Assembly (NCBI GenBank): GCA_030837195.1
Contig: JAUPKZ010000001.1
Coordinates: 5,104 to 69,103, forward strand
DNA length: 64,000 bases
Direction of reading: 5' to 3'
DNA from: Campylobacterota bacterium
Lineage (GTDB): Bacteria > Campylobacterota > Campylobacteria > Campylobacterales > Sulfurimonadaceae
Part shown: in pieces, positions 24,541 through 54,725 of the stretch
How positions within the stretch are numbered: position 1 is the stretch's first letter
Layout of the letters: each line of letters begins with the position of its first letter
Notes under the pieces: generated by a model
Databases searched by the model: none
Told to the model about the DNA's origin: nothing
Seen by the model: only the letters and a program-made list of their open reading frames with translations
Made by a program: the position numbers and the translations under genes

Positions 24541-24735
24541 CTATGCCCCGTTAAACAATTACAACTATATCTTAAAAAATATAAAAATCGACATAAAAGA
24601 TATTGCTTTTCTTAAGCATTATTTCTGTACAATTGCGCGTTCCTTTCTCTTTGTATCAAATTTTTTTTGATATATGCATATCCGAAAGGGAAACAAACGC
24701 CTATTTTAGGCAAATACCAAAGGGAGACTTACTCT

Positions 24736-25146
24736 ATGAGAAATTACGAAAACTTAGTAATCGTAAAACCGACATTAACAGCAGAAGAGATTCAAGCTAG
24801 CATTAAAGCAGTTGAAGAAACTATCACTTCTAACGGCGGCGAAATCGCTGCAACAGACAGCATGGGTATGAGAAAATTAGCATATCCTCTTGCAAAAAAC
24901 GAGCGTGGTTATTTCCATGTAATCTACTACTCGGCAGCTCCTTCGGCAATCAGCGAAATTGAAAGACGCTTTCGTATCAACGAAGATATCCTTCGTTTTG
25001 TAACTATCAAATATGATACAAACCGTGAAGTAAAAGCATGGCATCAACTTGTGCAAAAAGCACAGAAAAAGTCTGCTGCTCCTACGACAGAGGCTAAAAC
25101 TGAAAGCCCTAAAGTAGAAGAAGCAGCTGAAGCAGCAGCAGAGTAA
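24736..25146 (+). CDS. rpsF: 30S ribosomal protein S6
   Basis: ATG at 24736 preceded by AGGGAG. MRNYENLVIVKPTL start. A/E-rich C-terminal tail ending ...EEAAEAAAE. The upstream extension in the ORF track is rejected. Confidence 0.95.
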   Translation: MRNYENLVIVKPTLTAEEIQASIKAVEETITSNGGEIAATDSMGMRKLAYPLAKNERGYFHVIYYSAAPSAISEIERRFRINEDILRFVTIKYDTNREVKAWHQLVQKAQKKSAAPTTEAKTESPKVEEAAEAAAE

Positions 25147-45551: not shown

Positions 45552-46418
45552 GTGCATAAAAAGGGAACTCATTTTCTATTAACCACTATTTTCCCTCTTG
45601 CTTTTGTTGGTTGTACCCATACATATGTGCCTACCCAAAAAAATGATACTGAGTCGCTTAATGCACAGTTTCTAACTCTTGAGCGCTCCATAAAAGATTT
45701 AAAAAATGAAGTAAAAACACAAGAAGAAGATTTGCTGGATGCTTTTACTCTAAAACAAAACAGCAATACTCACACTATAAAAACACAGATTCAAACAACG
45801 CAAATTCAACTTGAAGATAAAATCACCAAAGAGCTTCAAGAAGCAATCAAATCTCTTAAAGCGCAAAATGCAGCTACCATAATGCCGCAACAACAAGAGC
45901 GTTTGCAGGAAAAAGAAAAAGAAAAAGAAAAAGAAAAAGTAGTCGTCTATAAAACACTAAAAGAGCCGTGTCTTTTAGCAGGCAAGTTTATAGTAGGCGA
46001 GTTTGAAGATGTCAGAATTGACCCGCCTGCTCTAATAGCAGCCGCTAGAATCGACTCAGGCGCCGAAACCTCATCAATTGATGCAAGAAATATCTTTGAG
46101 TTTCAAAGAGACGGCGCGAACTGGGTTAGATTTGACTTTGTAGATAGAAAAAACAATACGATTCACGCTATAGAGACAAAAATTGCAAGATATGCGACGG
46201 TCTTTCAATCTTCACAAAAAGATAAAAGCGACAAAAGAATCGTTATAAAGCTAAAAATAGATATCGGTAACCATTCAGACTTAGCAGAGTTTACTCTTGC
46301 AAACAGGGCTTCTATGAACTTTGCCGTTCTAATAGGAAGAAATATTCTCAAAGATATAGCAGTTATCGATATAAGCGGAAAAAATTTGGCGCCTCTGGCG
46401 GATACTAAAACAAAATGA
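45552..46418 (+). CDS. Lipoprotein with coiled coil and C-terminal retropepsin-like domain ('ATP-dependent zinc protease'/DUF785 family)
   Basis: GTG start after an AGGA-containing RBS. Lipobox LAFVGC. (EK)5 linker. C-terminal domain GEFEDVRI......ARIDSGAETSSIDA...F...G..WVRF... with a D-S-G-A aspartic-protease-type motif. Confidence 0.65.
   Translation: MHKKGTHFLLTTIFPLAFVGCTHTYVPTQKNDTESLNAQFLTLERSIKDLKNEVKTQEEDLLDAFTLKQNSNTHTIKTQIQTTQIQLEDKITKELQEAIKSLKAQNAATIMPQQQERLQEKEKEKEKEKVVVYKTLKEPCLLAGKFIVGEFEDVRIDPPALIAAARIDSGAETSSIDARNIFEFQRDGANWVRFDFVDRKNNTIHAIETKIARYATVFQSSQKDKSDKRIVIKLKIDIGNHSDLAEFTLANRASMNFAVLIGRNILKDIAVIDISGKNLAPLADTKTK
45909..45938 (+). repeat. (GAAAAA)5 hexanucleotide microsatellite inside a CDS
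   Basis: Five perfect GAAAAA units encoding EKEKEKEKEK. Confidence 0.9.
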
Positions 46419-47929
46419 TTAAGTTTAGTTTTTATTTTATCATACTTCTTCACATCGGGCTTGGTATATTTATAGCATACCAAAGACATCATCAAACTCA
46501 GATACCGTTTTTACCGGGTGAAGAGACAAAGGTTTGGCTTATTGAGGCAAAAGTTGAATTTTTGGCAAATCCAAACACCCCGACTATGATATCCTTAAGT
46601 GTGCCGAGTGAAGTTCCAAACTATAAAATATTTTTTGAGCAAAGCTCTTCTGCAGGATACGGCTTTAACAAAGTTGAAGAAAACGGACAAAAAAAAGCAC
46701 AATGGAGCATTAGAGAAGCTACTTCAAAGCAGACTCTTTATTATAAAGTTCAAGCTGCACGAGGAGACTCACAACAACCACCGACACAGCAGATCAACAC
46801 AGAGGATAAAAAACTCTCTTCTCTTATGTGGACAAAAGCCGAAGAACTTGCGATAGAAGATATACTAAGCGAGGCAAAAAGCCGCTCAAGCAATGATGAA
46901 ACACTAACAATAGAGCTTATCAAACTCTTTGCAAGCAAATCTATGGGGGAGAGCTCTTCACTTCTTTTATACAATAAAGATCGAGTGGAAGTTATAAATG
47001 CAATCCTAAATCAAGCAGGAGTTCAAAGCAGAATTGCTATGGGGCTAAAGCTAGAAGATGCCAGAAGAAACCAAAGCTTAATATCGATGATTGAAATATA
47101 TACTAACGGTAAATGGGTGCTTTTTGACACACTTAGCGCAGAGAAAAATATAGAAGAAAACTTCTTTTTATGGCATAGAGGAAACTCTCTTCTTGATATC
47201 AGCGGAGCAGAAGACGCAAAAGTCACTTTTTCTATGATAGAGCAAAATATTTCAAATATGGAGCTTGCAAAAGTTTACTATGACAAATCAATTTTTAGAC
47301 TATTTAGCATACACTCTTTGCCAATAGAAGAACAAGGCATATTTAAGATGCTGCTTTTATTACCGCTTGGCGCTCTTATTACGGTATTTTTACGACTGAT
47401 CGTAGGCATTAAAACATCCGGAACATTTATGCCTGTTCTCATAGCAATGGCATTTTTACAAACTTCTCTTCTTCCTGGCATTACGGCTTTTATTGTTATC
47501 GTAGCCATGGGTCTTGTCATTAGAAACTATCTATCATATCTTAACCTTCTATTGGTTGCAAGAATAGCCACCACAATAGTCGTTGTTATTTTTATGATGG
47601 TTACTGCAAGCCTCATCGGGTATAATCTGGGGTTTAACACGGGAATGACCGTTGCGGCTTTTCCTATCATCATTTTAGCATGGACAATTGAGAGGATGTC
47701 TATACTCTGGGAAGAAGAAGGAGCAAAAGAGGTATTTATTCAAGGAGGAGGAAGCCTTTTTGTTGCTACGCTTGCTTATCTGGCAATGCAAAACTCTTTT
47801 GTCGAGCATCTAACCTTTAACTTTCCGGAGCTTAACTTTATACTTCTCTCATTTATGCTCTTTCTTGGCAGATATACCGGCTATAGGCTCTTAGAGCTCT
47901 ATAGATTTAGAGAGTTTAAAGGTCAATAA
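46415..47929 (+). CDS. Membrane protein: N-terminal TM + extracytoplasmic (inactive transglutaminase-like) domain + 7 C-terminal TM helices
   Basis: 504 aa. ATGA overlap with the upstream gene. One TM at 5-25, a roughly 280-aa soluble region, then 7 hydrophobic helices from about residue 310. The architecture matches the family described as 'inactive transglutaminase fused to 7TM'. Confidence 0.55.
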   Translation: MIKFSFYFIILLHIGLGIFIAYQRHHQTQIPFLPGEETKVWLIEAKVEFLANPNTPTMISLSVPSEVPNYKIFFEQSSSAGYGFNKVEENGQKKAQWSIREATSKQTLYYKVQAARGDSQQPPTQQINTEDKKLSSLMWTKAEELAIEDILSEAKSRSSNDETLTIELIKLFASKSMGESSSLLLYNKDRVEVINAILNQAGVQSRIAMGLKLEDARRNQSLISMIEIYTNGKWVLFDTLSAEKNIEENFFLWHRGNSLLDISGAEDAKVTFSMIEQNISNMELAKVYYDKSIFRLFSIHSLPIEEQGIFKMLLLLPLGALITVFLRLIVGIKTSGTFMPVLIAMAFLQTSLLPGITAFIVIVAMGLVIRNYLSYLNLLLVARIATTIVVVIFMMVTASLIGYNLGFNTGMTVAAFPIIILAWTIERMSILWEEEGAKEVFIQGGGSLFVATLAYLAMQNSFVEHLTFNFPELNFILLSFMLFLGRYTGYRLLELYRFREFKGQ

Positions 47930-48876
47930 TGGCTTTTCTTGCAACCTTTAACACACTCAAAAAAAACGGTATTTTGGGTATGAATGAGAGAAATGTAAAC
48001 TATATATCGAAGTATAATGACAGAAGACTCTATCCTTTGGTTGACGACAAACTACAAACAAAACTCTTAGCTCAAAAAATGGGTATCAGCACACCAAATC
48101 TTTTTTTTACTATTGCCCATCAACACGATGTAAAAGAGCTCTCAAAAAAGTTAGAACCTCTAGATGCTTTTGTCATTAAGCCCTCCAGAGGTTCAGGCGG
48201 AAAAGGGATTTTAGTCATAAAATCTAAAACAAAAGAGGGTTTTGTAAAAACAAACGATGAAATTATCACGATTGAAACAATTATGCGACATGTTACAAAT
48301 ATCCTATCAGGACTTTATTCACTAAGCAGCACTCCGGATGTCGCTATATTTGAAGATTTGGTTATTGCAAATTCTGTTTTAAAAAAATACTCATATCAAG
48401 GCGTTCCTGATATTAGAATTATTGTTTTTAGGGGGTACCCTATTATGGCTATGCTAAGGCTCTCTACAAAATCATCCGACGGAAAAGCAAACCTTCATCA
48501 AGGTGCAGTCGGTGTAGGAATAGATATAAAAAGTGCTAAAGCAATTTCTGCCGTACAGGAACAAACAAGAGTTTATGAGCACCCTGATACCAAAAATAGC
48601 CTCGATAAAATAGAATTAGAAAATTGGATAGAACTTTTAGAACTAAGCGCTAAGTGCTACGATATGACAAAATTAGGCTATTTGGGCGTAGATATCGTAC
48701 TAGATGAAAAACGCGGACCTATGCTTCTTGAGCTCAATGCAAGACCGGGCTTATCTATACAAGTAGCCAATTCTCAAGGGTTGCTCCCAAGACTTCAAGA
48801 GATAGAAAAAATAGAAGAGATAGCGCCAAATGCCAAAGAAAGAGTCTCTTTTGTGCTTGAGAAAAACTGGGTTTAA
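47929..48876 (+). CDS. RimK-related ATP-grasp ligase (alpha-L-glutamate ligase-like protein)
   Basis: 315 aa. TAATG overlap with the upstream gene. ATP-grasp motifs FVIKPSRGSGGKGILVI, DIRIIVFRG, NLHQGA.G, GVDIVLDEKRGPMLLELNARPGL. Confidence 0.75.
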   Translation: MAFLATFNTLKKNGILGMNERNVNYISKYNDRRLYPLVDDKLQTKLLAQKMGISTPNLFFTIAHQHDVKELSKKLEPLDAFVIKPSRGSGGKGILVIKSKTKEGFVKTNDEIITIETIMRHVTNILSGLYSLSSTPDVAIFEDLVIANSVLKKYSYQGVPDIRIIVFRGYPIMAMLRLSTKSSDGKANLHQGAVGVGIDIKSAKAISAVQEQTRVYEHPDTKNSLDKIELENWIELLELSAKCYDMTKLGYLGVDIVLDEKRGPMLLELNARPGLSIQVANSQGLLPRLQEIEKIEEIAPNAKERVSFVLEKNWV

Positions 48877-50814: not shown

Positions 50815-51066
50815 TTAATCGTAATCTTCGGAAAACTTGCTTCTGTGTCGAAATTTTTGAACATGCCCGTAGTCGTCATCTTCATCATCGTCATACTCAT
50901 CGCCAAACTCATTTTCAAGCAATCTCTCATAACCCATTTTTTCGAGTTCATCATCAATTTGCTCTTTGTCCAAGCCATTTTTTTTACTAAAATCTAAGAT
51001 GTATTCAACATCTTTTCTCATTACACCGTTTAGCTCTAAAACAAATTCCAAATCTTTAAATGTCAT
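50815..51066 (-). CDS. Small acidic hypothetical protein
   Basis: ATG at 51066 has an AAGG RBS 5 nt upstream (the track ORF starts at 51096). The C-terminus carries a DEYDDDEDDDY acidic run. Confidence 0.4.
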   Translation of the reverse strand: MTFKDLEFVLELNGVMRKDVEYILDFSKKNGLDKEQIDDELEKMGYERLLENEFGDEYDDDEDDDYGHVQKFRHRSKFSEDYD

Positions 51067-51246: not shown

Positions 51247-51255
51247 TGTTATAAT
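51247..51255 (+). promoter_or_regulatory. Extended -10 element (TGtTATAAT) upstream of the rimK-fusion operon
   Basis: TGTTATAAT lies 16 nt before the first ATG (51272), preceded by a long A/T-rich tract. Confidence 0.4.
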
Positions 51256-51271
51256 TTAACCAAAATAGCGG

Positions 51272-52690
51272 ATGTGTCTTATGTCTGAAAAAACAATTAT
51301 CGGTGCTAGAGAAATCATTTCAATTGCAGATTTAAACTTATACGACCTTGATGTAAAGATTGACACGGGTGCCGATTCAAATGCGCTTCATTGTGATGAT
51401 ATTTTTGTAGATGAAAACAATATAGTCCATTTCAAACTTCTTGATGAAGTTCATCCTGCATACCACGGTAAAGAGATGCATATGCCGCTTTATGAGATGA
51501 AAAAAATCAAAAGCTCAAACGGTGAGGTACAGCAAAGACCCTCCATAAAAGCAAAAGTTGAATTTTTCGGCAAAAGATATACAACGGTTATATCACTAAC
51601 GGATAGATCCGATATGAAATATCCTATGCTTCTTGGAAAAAAATTTCTTAAAAAAAATTTCTTAGTTGATATTTCACAAGAATATCTCTCAAAATCTCAT
51701 AAAAAATCTGCTGCCGTAGAACAGCCAAAAGATGCTACACAACAAAAAACAACACCGATAAGAGTCTATGTACTATCAAGAAACAAAGAGCTATATTCGA
51801 CAAAAAGGCTAGTTCAGGCAGCTGAACAAAGAGGTTGGGAAGTAAAGGTCATTGATTATTTAAAATGCAGCATCGAGATTATGAAAGATGAGTTAAAGGT
51901 AAACTATCTAGGCAAAGAGCTGCCAAAACCGGATGCTATAATCCCAAGAATAGGCGCTAGCAGAACATTTTACGGAACTGCTATGGTACGCCATTTTGAA
52001 ATGATGGATGTTTTTACAACAACCGGAAGTTTGGCTATTAAACGCAGCAGAGATAAGCTAAGAAGCCTTCAAATACTCTCAAAAAACGGTATCGATTTGC
52101 CAAAAACCGTATTTGCTTCTAACAAATCAAGTACAAAAGATGTAATAGCCCTAAGCGGAGGAGCTCCGCTTGTTCTTAAGATTTTAGAAGGAACTCAGGG
52201 GGTCGGCGTTGTTTTAGTTGAGAGCGAAAAAGCAGCAAAATCCGTGCTAGATGCTTTTTACGGCATGGATGTAAATATGCTTGTTCAAGAGTACATAAAA
52301 GAGTCTGGTGGTTCCGACATCAGAGCCTTTATAGTAGGAGGTAAAATTGTCGGAGCAATGAGGCGCCAAGGCATAGAGGGCGACTTTAGGTCAAACCTTC
52401 ATCAAGGCGGTAGAGCTACTGCACATAAACTCACGAAAAAAGAAAAAGAGACTGCCCTTGCCGCTGCCAAAGCTATGGGTCTTAATGTGTGCGGGGTAGA
52501 TATGATCCCATCTGCCAGAGGACCTTTAGTTATGGAAGTAAACTCTTCACCCGGACTTGAAGGTATCGAGAAATCAACAAATATAGATATTGCCTCTAAG
52601 ATTATGGAGTACATAGAAAAAAATGTTACACAAAAAAATAGAGCACTTACAAAAAAATCAAGAATAAAAAAAGATAGCATAGGAGCTTAA
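51272..52690 (+). CDS. rimK: Fusion protein: retropepsin-like (DUF785/'Zn protease') domain + RimK ribosomal protein S6 glutamate ligase
   Basis: 472 aa. N-terminal about 140 aa with IGAREIISI..L......VKIDTGADSNALHC (D-T-G-A). The C-terminal 300 aa is co-linear with RimK (LVLKILEGTQGVGVVLVES, DIRAFIVGG, NLHQGG, CGVDMIPSARGPLVMEVNSSPGLEGIE). Confidence 0.85.
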   Translation: MCLMSEKTIIGAREIISIADLNLYDLDVKIDTGADSNALHCDDIFVDENNIVHFKLLDEVHPAYHGKEMHMPLYEMKKIKSSNGEVQQRPSIKAKVEFFGKRYTTVISLTDRSDMKYPMLLGKKFLKKNFLVDISQEYLSKSHKKSAAVEQPKDATQQKTTPIRVYVLSRNKELYSTKRLVQAAEQRGWEVKVIDYLKCSIEIMKDELKVNYLGKELPKPDAIIPRIGASRTFYGTAMVRHFEMMDVFTTTGSLAIKRSRDKLRSLQILSKNGIDLPKTVFASNKSSTKDVIALSGGAPLVLKILEGTQGVGVVLVESEKAAKSVLDAFYGMDVNMLVQEYIKESGGSDIRAFIVGGKIVGAMRRQGIEGDFRSNLHQGGRATAHKLTKKEKETALAAAKAMGLNVCGVDMIPSARGPLVMEVNSSPGLEGIEKSTNIDIASKIMEYIEKNVTQKNRALTKKSRIKKDSIGA

Positions 52691-52699
52691 AATATAAAT

Positions 52700-53731
52700 A
52701 TGGAACTATTTTATGATGTATTAAAGCAGCTTATTCGCGTTCCTAGCGTGGTGGGAGCCGAGCATCCTTTTTTTTTATTTATAAAAAGAGAACTTGAAGA
52801 AGCGGGAATTACGGTAGAGTACTACGATGGGGTACTAGTCGCAAAAGGAGATTCTCCTGAGGATGGGTATATATCTGCTCATGCCGATAGACACGGGCTC
52901 ATTTGTACCGGACACAATGAGTTTCAGTATGCAGCTTTCATAGCAAAAAATAAAGCAGACCTAATGGGAAACTCAAACTCCGAGCAGCTTTTAAATAATT
53001 TTACAGCGCGATTTGTAGATGAAAAAGTACAAGCTTATGACCCTTGGTCTGGAAGCTATATAGGGCTTGGAACCATTAAAGATGCTTTTTTATGCCAAAG
53101 AAGGAACAATATTATATTTAAAGTTGAAGGTTTTGACTATCTCTTTCCCGGAACTCCTATTGCATTTATGGATAAACTAGATTTTCAAGAGGAACTTATT
53201 TCTGCACAACTTGACAATGTTTTGAGCGTTGCAATCATCATCTATCTATATCTCATAGGGTACAAAGGTACGGCTTTTTTTACGGCATCCGAAGAAGCGG
53301 GAAAGAGTTGGAGATTTTTACTTGAGTATTTCAGAAGGTTCGATATCGCCACAAATGAACTCTTGGTCTTAGATACAAGCCCCTACCCTACACTTGAAGA
53401 TATAAAAAATATAGACATTGTTTTAAGAAACAGAGATTCAAATGCCGTTTTTAAATCACCGCTTAAAGATAGAATCAAAAAAATAGCAAAAAAAGAGAAG
53501 ATCAAATACGACTTTAAAGATAAATATCTAAGAAATAAAATCAAAAAAAATGGCGCAAAAGGATCCATAGGCACGACGGAGTTAGGAAGGCTTATCCATG
53601 CAACGAAAGGACAACTTCAAGGTACTACGCTGCAAATTCCTACAATTGGGTATCATACGGTAAATGAAACAACGACAAAAAGCTCTGTTGAGAGCATGAT
53701 TAATGTCTTAAAAAAAGTATATATAAAATAA
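52700..53731 (+). CDS. M42-family (glutamyl-aminopeptidase-like) metallopeptidase
   Basis: 343 aa. Putative metal and catalytic positions are all present in order: SAHADRHG, QLDN, SEEAG, LVLDTS, GYHTVNE. Starts 9 nt after rimK. Confidence 0.6.
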   Translation: MELFYDVLKQLIRVPSVVGAEHPFFLFIKRELEEAGITVEYYDGVLVAKGDSPEDGYISAHADRHGLICTGHNEFQYAAFIAKNKADLMGNSNSEQLLNNFTARFVDEKVQAYDPWSGSYIGLGTIKDAFLCQRRNNIIFKVEGFDYLFPGTPIAFMDKLDFQEELISAQLDNVLSVAIIIYLYLIGYKGTAFFTASEEAGKSWRFLLEYFRRFDIATNELLVLDTSPYPTLEDIKNIDIVLRNRDSNAVFKSPLKDRIKKIAKKEKIKYDFKDKYLRNKIKKNGAKGSIGTTELGRLIHATKGQLQGTTLQIPTIGYHTVNETTTKSSVESMINVLKKVYIK

Positions 53732-53753
53732 ACCTGTTATTATAGGATAGGCA

Positions 53754-54539
53754 ATGAGCAATATTCATAATTTAGTAGATAATTTACACTTGGAAGATTT
53801 AAGAAATGCAAATCATCCCTCAATTTTTGATGAAAATGAGTTATACGATATGCTCATTATAAGACTACCTATCATTGAAAAAACAATTAAAGTAAACTCT
53901 ATCGGGTTTATAATTACCCATGACAACAGCTACTTTTACAATAGAGAAAAAGATACTTTTGAAGAGTTAGGCAACCGTTTTGAAGCTCCGTATGAGATTT
54001 TGGATGACATAGTAGATGCTTTATTGAAGTCATTTGAAGGTTATGACGATTTGATTGTAGATATGGAAGAAACTTTATATATAAACAAAACGAAAAGCTC
54101 TTTTATGAAACAATGGCTTACCCTTAAACACAATATTGTAAAAATAGAGAGAATACTAATGCATGCCTCTTCGACGATGGATAAAGCTATCGGGTACTAT
54201 GAAAAAACTGAAAAATTTCCCATAAACCACTATACGGATTTGCACGAGCATATAGAAAGAACTCTAAGATCCGCTACGCTACAACTCTCTAAACTTGACT
54301 ATATCTATAACTTTTACAGTGCATTAACAAACGAGAGAACAAATCATTCAATCTATATACTGACTATTATTTCTGCAGTATTTTTACCGCTAAATCTGAT
54401 TGTCGGTTTTTTTGGTATAAACACAAGCGGTCTGCCTTTTAGCGACGGGAGTTCAGGAACGACCAATGTTATAGTACTTATGTTTTTTGTGTTGATTGTT
54501 TCTATAGTGTTGATTAATTTTGTAAGAAATAGAGCTTAA
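53754..54539 (+). CDS. CorA/ZntB-like divalent cation channel (short form, GIN motif)
   Basis: 261 aa. Cytoplasmic helical domain, then two C-terminal TM segments joined by FFGINTSGLPF (GxN motif, closer to ZntB GVN than CorA GMN). Confidence 0.6.
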   Translation: MSNIHNLVDNLHLEDLRNANHPSIFDENELYDMLIIRLPIIEKTIKVNSIGFIITHDNSYFYNREKDTFEELGNRFEAPYEILDDIVDALLKSFEGYDDLIVDMEETLYINKTKSSFMKQWLTLKHNIVKIERILMHASSTMDKAIGYYEKTEKFPINHYTDLHEHIERTLRSATLQLSKLDYIYNFYSALTNERTNHSIYILTIISAVFLPLNLIVGFFGINTSGLPFSDGSSGTTNVIVLMFFVLIVSIVLINFVRNRA

Positions 54540-54545
54540 TAAATA

Positions 54546-54567
54546 AAATAGGTCAAAAGACCTATTT
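54546..54567. terminator. Bidirectional hairpin between convergent corA-like gene and small ORF
   Basis: AAATAGGTC-AAAA-GACCTATTT 9-bp stem, 7 nt after the plus-strand stop. Confidence 0.6.
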
Positions 54568-54593
54568 CAGAGGGAGAAATAAAGAAGGATCGC

Positions 54594-54725
54594 TTAGTAA
54601 ATATCTGAACTAGGGTGGTTCGGTTTTGAGATATTGCTACCAGCGTCTTTTGTATCATAGTGTACTGTGTTGTCAGCTTGAAGAGCACCTAATGTTAATG
54701 CGATTAGTAAAATGATCTTTTTCAT
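54594..54725 (-). CDS. Unlisted 43-aa ORF encoding a signal-peptide-bearing small protein
   Basis: Hand translation: MKKIILLIALTLGALQADNTVHYDTKDAGSNISKPNHPSSDIY*. AGGA RBS 7 nt upstream, A-x-A-like cleavage site (LQA|D), hairpin downstream. Falls below the length cut-off of the supplied ORF track. Confidence 0.5.
   Translation of the reverse strand: MKKIILLIALTLGALQADNTVHYDTKDAGSNISKPNHPSSDIY

Follow-up and report, generated by a model that had tools for sequence, protein, structure and literature searches.

A stretch of 64,000 nucleotides (nt) from a Sulfurimonas metagenome assembly (GCA_030837195.1, contig JAUPKZ010000001.1; hereafter the window) carries three consecutive genes for a fused protease and glutamate ligase, a metallopeptidase homologue and a cation channel. 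The question raised by this locus was whether the three genes make one system acting on glutamate chains and, if so, what such a system would act upon. Enzymes of the RimK class add alpha-linked glutamates to the C-terminus of a protein, and also make free poly-alpha-glutamate. The Rim system is among the few known bacterial routes to retuning of the ribosome and to poly-alpha-glutamate, and it has been studied almost solely in Pseudomonas and Escherichia coli. The locus was read, as the explanation that is on balance probable, as a Campylobacterota version of the Rim system that makes and cuts alpha-linked glutamate chains, compacted in this strain into a three-gene unit. The source genome (1.69 Mb, 134 contigs) was 97% complete. 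The unit consists of the following features:

51272-52690, + strand: rimBK, open reading frame (ORF) 1, 472 amino acids (aa); RimB-like retropepsin domain, linker and RimK alpha-L-glutamate ligase, from the ORF, Pfam and NCBIfam domains and PDB matches
51272-51688, + strand: RimB-like retropepsin domain (PF05618), with D31-T-G-A at nt 51362-51373
51689-51760, + strand: fusion linker SKSHKKSAAVEQPKDATQQKTTPI, as seen against the junction DNA of 8 close relatives
51758-52690, + strand: RimK domain, made up of pre-ATP-grasp and ATP-grasp parts; relatives' stand-alone RimK (310 aa) is 80-88% identical to it
52700-53731, + strand: ORF2, 343 aa; predicted M42-fold metallopeptidase homologue ("M42L") of a small divergent subfamily, with putative ligands H61, D63, D172, E198/E199, D225 and H319
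53754-54539, + strand: ORF3, 261 aa; short divalent-cation channel of the CorA family; G-I-N encoded at nt 54414-54422, two hydrophobic segments in the C-terminal part

The gaps were 9 nt between ORF1 and ORF2 and 22 nt between ORF2 and ORF3, and a purine-rich stretch preceded the ATG of both downstream genes. A first-pass annotation of the window had described a 472-aa fusion ORF at these coordinates, followed at the same two gaps by an M42-type gene and a channel gene, and this layout was reproduced.

Both halves of ORF1 were assigned to their families. PF05618 (Zn_protease/RimB-like; aa 9-141) covered its N-terminal part at 72.3 bits (cut-off 27), and this part matched the retropepsin-like structures 9g58 and 9g59. 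The RimB model NF052261 was the highest-scoring retropepsin model in NCBIfam (64.9 bits, below its equivalog cut-off of 200), ahead of RloA3 (50.6) and RloA (44). The catalytic D-T/S-G motif was present as D31-T-G-A. The N-terminus of ORF1, MCLMSEKTIIGAREI, showed no hydrophobic leader by eye, so the RimB domain is probably cytoplasmic, unlike RloA. The C-terminal part scored 370 bits with NF007764 (S6--L-glutamate ligase; RimK family NF007764/TIGR00768), above the equivalog cut-off of 331, over the full length of the model (residues 164-456). Rimk_N (PF18030) and RimK (PF08443) were both complete, and residues 164-452 aligned to the Pseudomonas RimK structure 7qyr with 354 bits. These matches place the domain among the genuine ATP-grasp ligases of the RimK family, and the initial description of a retropepsin-like D-T-G-A domain joined to a bona fide RimK was borne out.

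The fusion was peculiar to this strain. Related loci were collected by a narrower search with the M42-like alignment, and the best 80 of 561 loci, all from Campylobacterota, were compared. The rimB and rimK genes were separate ORFs in 52/52 of these loci that held both, with rimB of ~125-170 aa and rimK of ~310 aa, the latter usually starting MRVYILSRN. Among the best 120 database homologues, 119 were unfused RimK proteins (308-325 aa, 80-88% identity); the remaining one was fused (P0271; 452 aa, 66% identity) at a different junction. The 24-residue linker occupied the place of the relatives' rimB stop codon, ribosome-binding site and rimK ATG. The codon at the RimK methionine position was ATA (Ile), with no in-frame start nearby. 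Having lost its own start codon and ribosome-binding site, RimK can be produced only as part of the fusion.

A decaying pseudogene, or an artefact of assembly or sequencing, would also account for a fusion shared by 0/52 relatives in a metagenome assembly of 134 contigs. This was considered very improbable. The exact 469-aa product, with the same two neighbours, was found in independent Logan assemblies of at least 5 sequencing runs, which makes an artefact unlikely. The junction differed by a longer in-frame linker and not by a single base, both domains retained full-length family matches and catalytic motifs, and a second independent fusion is known (P0271). Gene calls in public assemblies begin ORF1 at the second ATG (51281; 469 aa), and an exact look-up of the 472-aa product accordingly returned no match.

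Fusions of this type have been described before. A RimBK hybrid was reported in 2025 from Desulfotalea psychrophila (DP2392), and such hybrids occurred in 12% of rim-bearing genomes, mostly in Flavobacteriales and Rhodobacterales (J Biol Chem; PMC11957791). The fusion as such is therefore not new. DP2392 likewise joins a RimB retropepsin-like domain, at the N-terminus, to RimK, at the C-terminus, in one polypeptide; the present fusion arose separately within Sulfurimonas and has a unique linker, and no accessory M42-like or CorA genes have been described for the published hybrids. Since the closest relatives were unfused (52/52 loci; 119 of the top 120 homologues), the fusion is, as judged from these comparisons, independent of the published hybrids, recent and of strain level. 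An independent fusion indicates selection for protease and ligase acting as one unit. The RimABK (RimB-RimK) system of Pseudomonas (PLoS Genet 2016 and 2020; PMC4741518, PMC7343187) is alike in its RimK ligase and glutamate-removing RimB protease; the present unit differs from it in having no gene for RimA (an EAL phosphodiesterase), in the fused rimB-rimK, in the additional M42-like and CorA genes, and in the tail of ribosomal protein S6.

Assignment of ORF2 to the M42 family was less direct. Peptidase_M42 (PF05343) matched it weakly (26.8 bits, cut-off 23.2) and over aa 151-334 only, no NCBIfam model matched, and the best direct sequence match in the PDB had E = 0.1. The subfamily was small: a search of 1.84 billion representatives gave 248 clusters with E ≤ 0.001. 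A profile built from 62 of its members matched M42 structures, namely 2gre (E = 7e-14), TET1 and TmPep1050. The AlphaFold model had a predicted local distance difference test score (pLDDT) of 90 and a predicted template modelling score (pTM) of 0.90, and its top 50 PDB folds were all M42/TET aminopeptidases (template modelling score ~0.70). Across 62 diverse homologues H61, D63 and D172 were invariant, and E198, E199, D225 and H319 were conserved in at least 90%; in alignments with TET1 and 2gre these positions fell on the motifs AHxD, LDD, EE and YxH. The metal and catalytic positions HxD, D, EE, D and H, noted at first sight as kept, were thus near-invariant. By profile, motifs and modelled fold, ORF2 is a homologue of the M42/TET-fold two-metal peptidases with all putative ligand positions intact.

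The two-domain fold and the His/Asp/Glu-Glu/Asp/His positions were common to the M42-like protein and the M42 (TET) aminopeptidases (Pyrococcus horikoshii TET1 and TET2; Bacillus cereus deblocking aminopeptidase 2gre). The M42-like subfamily differed from these enzymes in invariants of its own (R64, N173, R243, D246, Q312 and E323) and in near-invariant K273 and T293-E-L-G. Some M42 members (PepA, TET1) favour N-terminal Glu or Asp.

The M42-like gene followed rimK across Campylobacterota. In an evenly drawn sample of 301 Campylobacterota genomes, the M42-like gene was present in 25 and rimK in 28; rimK was present in 24/25 carriers of the M42-like gene (Fisher p = 3e-30, uncorrected for phylogeny). 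Conversely, the M42-like gene was present in 24/28 rimK-positive genomes and absent from 272/273 rimK-negative genomes. Within Sulfurimonas both genes were jointly present or absent in 13/14 sampled genomes, the exception (G187) having rimK without the M42-like gene. Another genus (g15) kept both genes although they were ~1.5 Mb apart.

Synteny pointed in the same direction. Among the 80 related loci, 65 had rimK no more than 5 kb from the M42-like gene, as did 53/61 of those that were fully flanked; rimK was upstream on the same strand in 55/80. In 34/80 loci a gene of the AstE/aspartoacylase type (PF24827) separated rimK from the M42-like gene. This AstE-like gene was not found in the source genome by tblastn; a true loss is probable because the assembly is 97% complete, with an assembly gap as the other possibility. 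A literature search that did not take in the 2009 survey of amidoligases by Iyer and colleagues, a possible source on RimK neighbourhoods, yielded no report that pairs RimK with enzymes of the M42 or AstE type. Relative to the literature searched, the M42-like gene, the AstE-like gene, the ion channels and a small acidic protein (described below) are new as companions of rimK.

ORF3 belonged to the CorA family, in agreement with the short GxN-motif channel first proposed. PF01544 scored 113 bits (cut-off 27), with an alignment to residues 171-344 of Thermotoga maritima CorA. Scores were below the NCBIfam cut-offs for CorA (TIGR00383; 68.6 vs 200.75) and for ZntB (NF007092; 34 vs 292 bits). The C-terminal two-helix pore region and GxN loop were like those of CorA and ZntB channels; the N-terminus was ~60-90 residues shorter, and the loop read G-I-N (aa 221-223) in place of G-M-N. 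The nearest relatives also had GIN, and most orthologues had G-M-N. In 24/80 loci a CorA-superfamily gene was at most 5 kb away from the M42-like gene, and in 14 it abutted it; it was placed variously downstream on the same strand, convergent, upstream, or between rimK and the M42-like gene. Two non-orthologous channel types were found at the cluster, one the short CorA, the other a ZntB-like protein of 323 aa (283 bits against the cut-off of 292). In some Arcobacter lineages the ZntB-like gene adjoined the M42-like gene in place of the short CorA. The ZntB-like genes that abutted the M42-like gene were:

L073, 5636-6607
L080, 8038-9009
L082, 8040-9011
L105, 6030-7001

Two Arcobacteraceae genomes carried rim operons of co-directional genes with overlapping ends, one of these genomes having no M42-like gene at all:

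G214 (L149, 3432-7146) and G268 (L150, 3017-6736): rimB, rimK, astE-like gene, 172-aa MscS-type channel, short CorA

A SnoaL-like protein of 133-141 aa was also observed, encoded next to the short CorA gene in Arcobacter (L078, 8831-9232) and next to the acidic-protein gene in rimK-negative genomes of family f11 (L147, 6378-6794). Because it adjoins each of them, the short CorA and acidic-protein genes are indirectly linked.

A working of the unit can be proposed from these assignments. By analogy with characterised Rim proteins, one chain would combine a glutamate ligase (RimK) and a polyglutamate endopeptidase (RimB). RimB proteins and the protease domain of the D. psychrophila RimBK cleave polyglutamylated RpsF, and RimB stimulates poly-alpha-glutamate synthesis by RimK (PMC11957791). 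The M42-like enzyme may be a cytoplasmic exopeptidase that digests RimB-released oligo-glutamate to glutamate. Its fold is of the aminopeptidase type, so it would act on free peptides only and would not trim C-terminal tails; its role would be to recycle free alpha-oligo-glutamates made by RimK. In relatives, the AstE-like enzyme would digest oligo-glutamates from the opposite end. Exopeptidases gained and lost with rimK would supply a missing step, by which severed glutamate chains re-enter the glutamate pool. The CorA-type channel may supply or balance divalent cations, whether Mg for the ATP-grasp domain, a metal for the peptidase (Co or Zn), or counter-ions of the polyanion. Such a cycle of writing, trimming and recycling is plausible from sequence. 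The write/trim cycle first suggested for the locus stood in its domain calls and in the tie of the peptidase to ligase and protease (co-occurrence in 24/25 carriers, synteny in 53/61 loci), and not in the trimming of protein tails by the peptidase. Sulfurimonas denitrificans, which carries the M42-like gene, and Arcobacter nitrofigilis, which carries rimK, are cultivable, and these ideas are testable in such relatives.

Several results weigh against this reading. The M42-like protein was just 13-18% identical to characterised M42 enzymes. Its distant homologues outside Campylobacterota (six representatives, 36-52% identity) had no rimK nearby in the 4 informative contexts, two being on contigs too short to judge; the link between the M42-like gene and rimK is thus clade-specific and not family-wide. 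The co-occurrence statistics are uncorrected for shared ancestry. The short CorA family was present in 64/301 genomes, including 51/273 without rimK, which makes the channel's link to the rim system facultative and not dedicated. Co-transcription of the three genes as one operon is predicted solely from the 9- and 22-nt gaps. The S6 protein encoded in the same window ended ...EAAAE, a single terminal Glu after Ala, and not Glu-Glu. The D. psychrophila RimBK failed to glutamylate Pseudomonas RpsF (PMC11957791).

Three observations fit the view that the M42-like peptidase and the CorA channel are housekeeping neighbours kept in place by inherited gene order, with no tie to glutamylation: the short CorA family was common without rimK, distant M42-like homologues were not near rimK, and the synteny came from one phylum, so that its counts are inflated by shared ancestry. 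Mere neighbourhood is nevertheless improbable. It does not fit an M42-like gene present in 24/28 rimK-positive and 1/273 rimK-negative genomes, gained and lost together with rimK within Sulfurimonas and kept alongside it after unlinking in g15. Gene order, moreover, was variously rearranged (same strand or convergent, astE-like gene present or absent), and the CorA-superfamily genes adjoining the M42-like gene were of two non-orthologous kinds.

What such a system would modify was addressed through S6. The S6 acceptor of E. coli RimK has an acidic C-terminus ending Glu-Glu. In the window, S6 (24667-25146) had a long Ala/Glu-rich C-terminal extension ending ...VEEAAEAAAE. Tails were compared in 29 related genomes, with the row for one genome (G254), a mis-oriented read, left out, and did not track rimK: Sulfurimonas S6 ended in Glu with or without rimK, and rimK-positive Arcobacteraceae had ends such as ...KRASK, ...KKEQK and ...SAAKA, the Ala/Glu-rich tail being absent from that family. 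S6 is thus a possible acceptor in the source strain; as a conserved acceptor across the group it is unlikely, because its tails were uncorrelated with rimK. The first-pass proposal of S6 as the target was weakened to that extent, several RimK-positive relatives ending in Lys or Ala.

A further candidate for the role of acceptor or regulator was encoded beside the unit:

50815-51066, - strand: gene for an 83-aa acidic protein, divergent from rimBK; conserved in relatives alongside rimB/rimK or the M42-like gene

The protein had a three-helix N-domain and a disordered Asp/Glu-rich tail. Neither Pfam nor NCBIfam gave a family for it, and a fold search gave no match (best E = 4.5). It was present in 21/28 rimK-positive and 8/273 other genomes, its gene adjoining rimB, rimK or the M42-like gene in three arrangements across families.

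The unfitting S6 tails, the acidic protein and the linked ion channels indicate that the target or purpose lies elsewhere than in S6. The system may accordingly not be directed at S6 but make and turn over free poly-alpha-glutamate, or tag another acceptor such as the acidic protein, the peptidases and ion channels then serving glutamate, osmotic or cation homeostasis. This is a tentative alternative. It draws on the Lys and Ala ends of S6 in Arcobacteraceae and the like tails of Sulfurimonas with and without RimK, on the distribution and varied gene arrangements of the acidic protein, on related operons in which a mini-MscS and a CorA gene come directly after rimK and an astE-like gene, on the published hybrid that did not glutamylate RpsF (PMC11957791), and on the tie of the paralogous Rlo system to osmotic stress (PMC12239564). 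Set against it, S6 here and in most Sulfurimonas ended in Glu after an acidic Ala-rich tail, the RimK domain had an equivalog-level score for the S6 ligase of E. coli, and modification of the acidic protein was unsupported, its C-terminal residue varying among D, E and S. The target question was also left open by the authors of the RimBK study (PMC11957791).

An extension of this alternative, equally doubtful, is that the Rim genes are the core of a larger and so far undescribed S6-independent accessory module for making and recycling poly-alpha-glutamate in Campylobacterota. Its possible parts, put forward with the same reserve, would be rimB, rimK, an AstE-like deacylase or carboxypeptidase, a dedicated M42-like aminopeptidase, the small acidic three-helix protein (a candidate for acceptor or regulator), and channels of the CorA/ZntB and mini-MscS types. 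If true, the module would serve glutamate, osmotic or divalent-cation homeostasis, and this strain's fusion would be a step in its compaction.

The window held a second system with related domains. The triad at 45552-48876 was identified with Pfam and NCBIfam models as an rloABC operon, and its end (48876) lay 2395 nt upstream of rimBK, close to the ~2.4 kb given originally. The rloABC system of Pseudomonas aeruginosa (mBio 2025, PMC12239564) also has a retropepsin-like protease together with an ATP-grasp enzyme resembling RimK; it differs from the present unit in that its protease is exported and in including a seven-transmembrane inactive transglutaminase. Identity between Rlo and Rim was 27% for the protease and 25% for the ligase here, as against 31% and 24% in Pseudomonas (PMC12239564). 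With identity as low as in Pseudomonas, the paralogy is ancient, and the two are separate systems. The suggested duplication with divergence was rejected as a local event on these identities and because proximity was not conserved, rloB and rloC being absent from all 80 related loci.

RloB was rare (4/301 genomes), and all four genomes had rimK and the M42-like gene. One other genome, of higher GC (guanine plus cytosine) content and from the same family as Sulfurimonas (f1), had rlo and rim side by side:

G254 (L026, 1-4020; G254:C1:1164183-1171823): 8-kb cluster of the acidic-protein gene, rloB, rloC, PPK2 polyphosphate kinase, M42-like gene, astE-like gene and rimK

Genomes with Rlo usually have Rim too (PMC12239564), and this co-presence hints at a functional relation. 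Separately, an RloA-like retropepsin gene (156 aa, hydrophobic leader) with no rloB or rloC nearby was directly 3' of the M42-like gene in several Arcobacteraceae (L058, 8041-8511; also L059, L062, L064, L066, L089, L090 and L105).

Two candidate regulatory signals flanked the three-gene unit:

51247-51254, + strand: candidate promoter, a TGtTATAAT extended -10-like element seen by eye; it follows an A/T-rich tract and lies 18 nt ahead of the first ATG
54544-54569, no strand assigned: 11-bp hairpin directly 3' of the channel gene; terminator-like site called on the minus strand

The promoter element was not among the matches of a promoter consensus scan and is given as a lead only. The hairpin had no T-run on the + strand and was common to the unit and a convergent small ORF (54594-54725); it likely marks the end of the three-gene unit.

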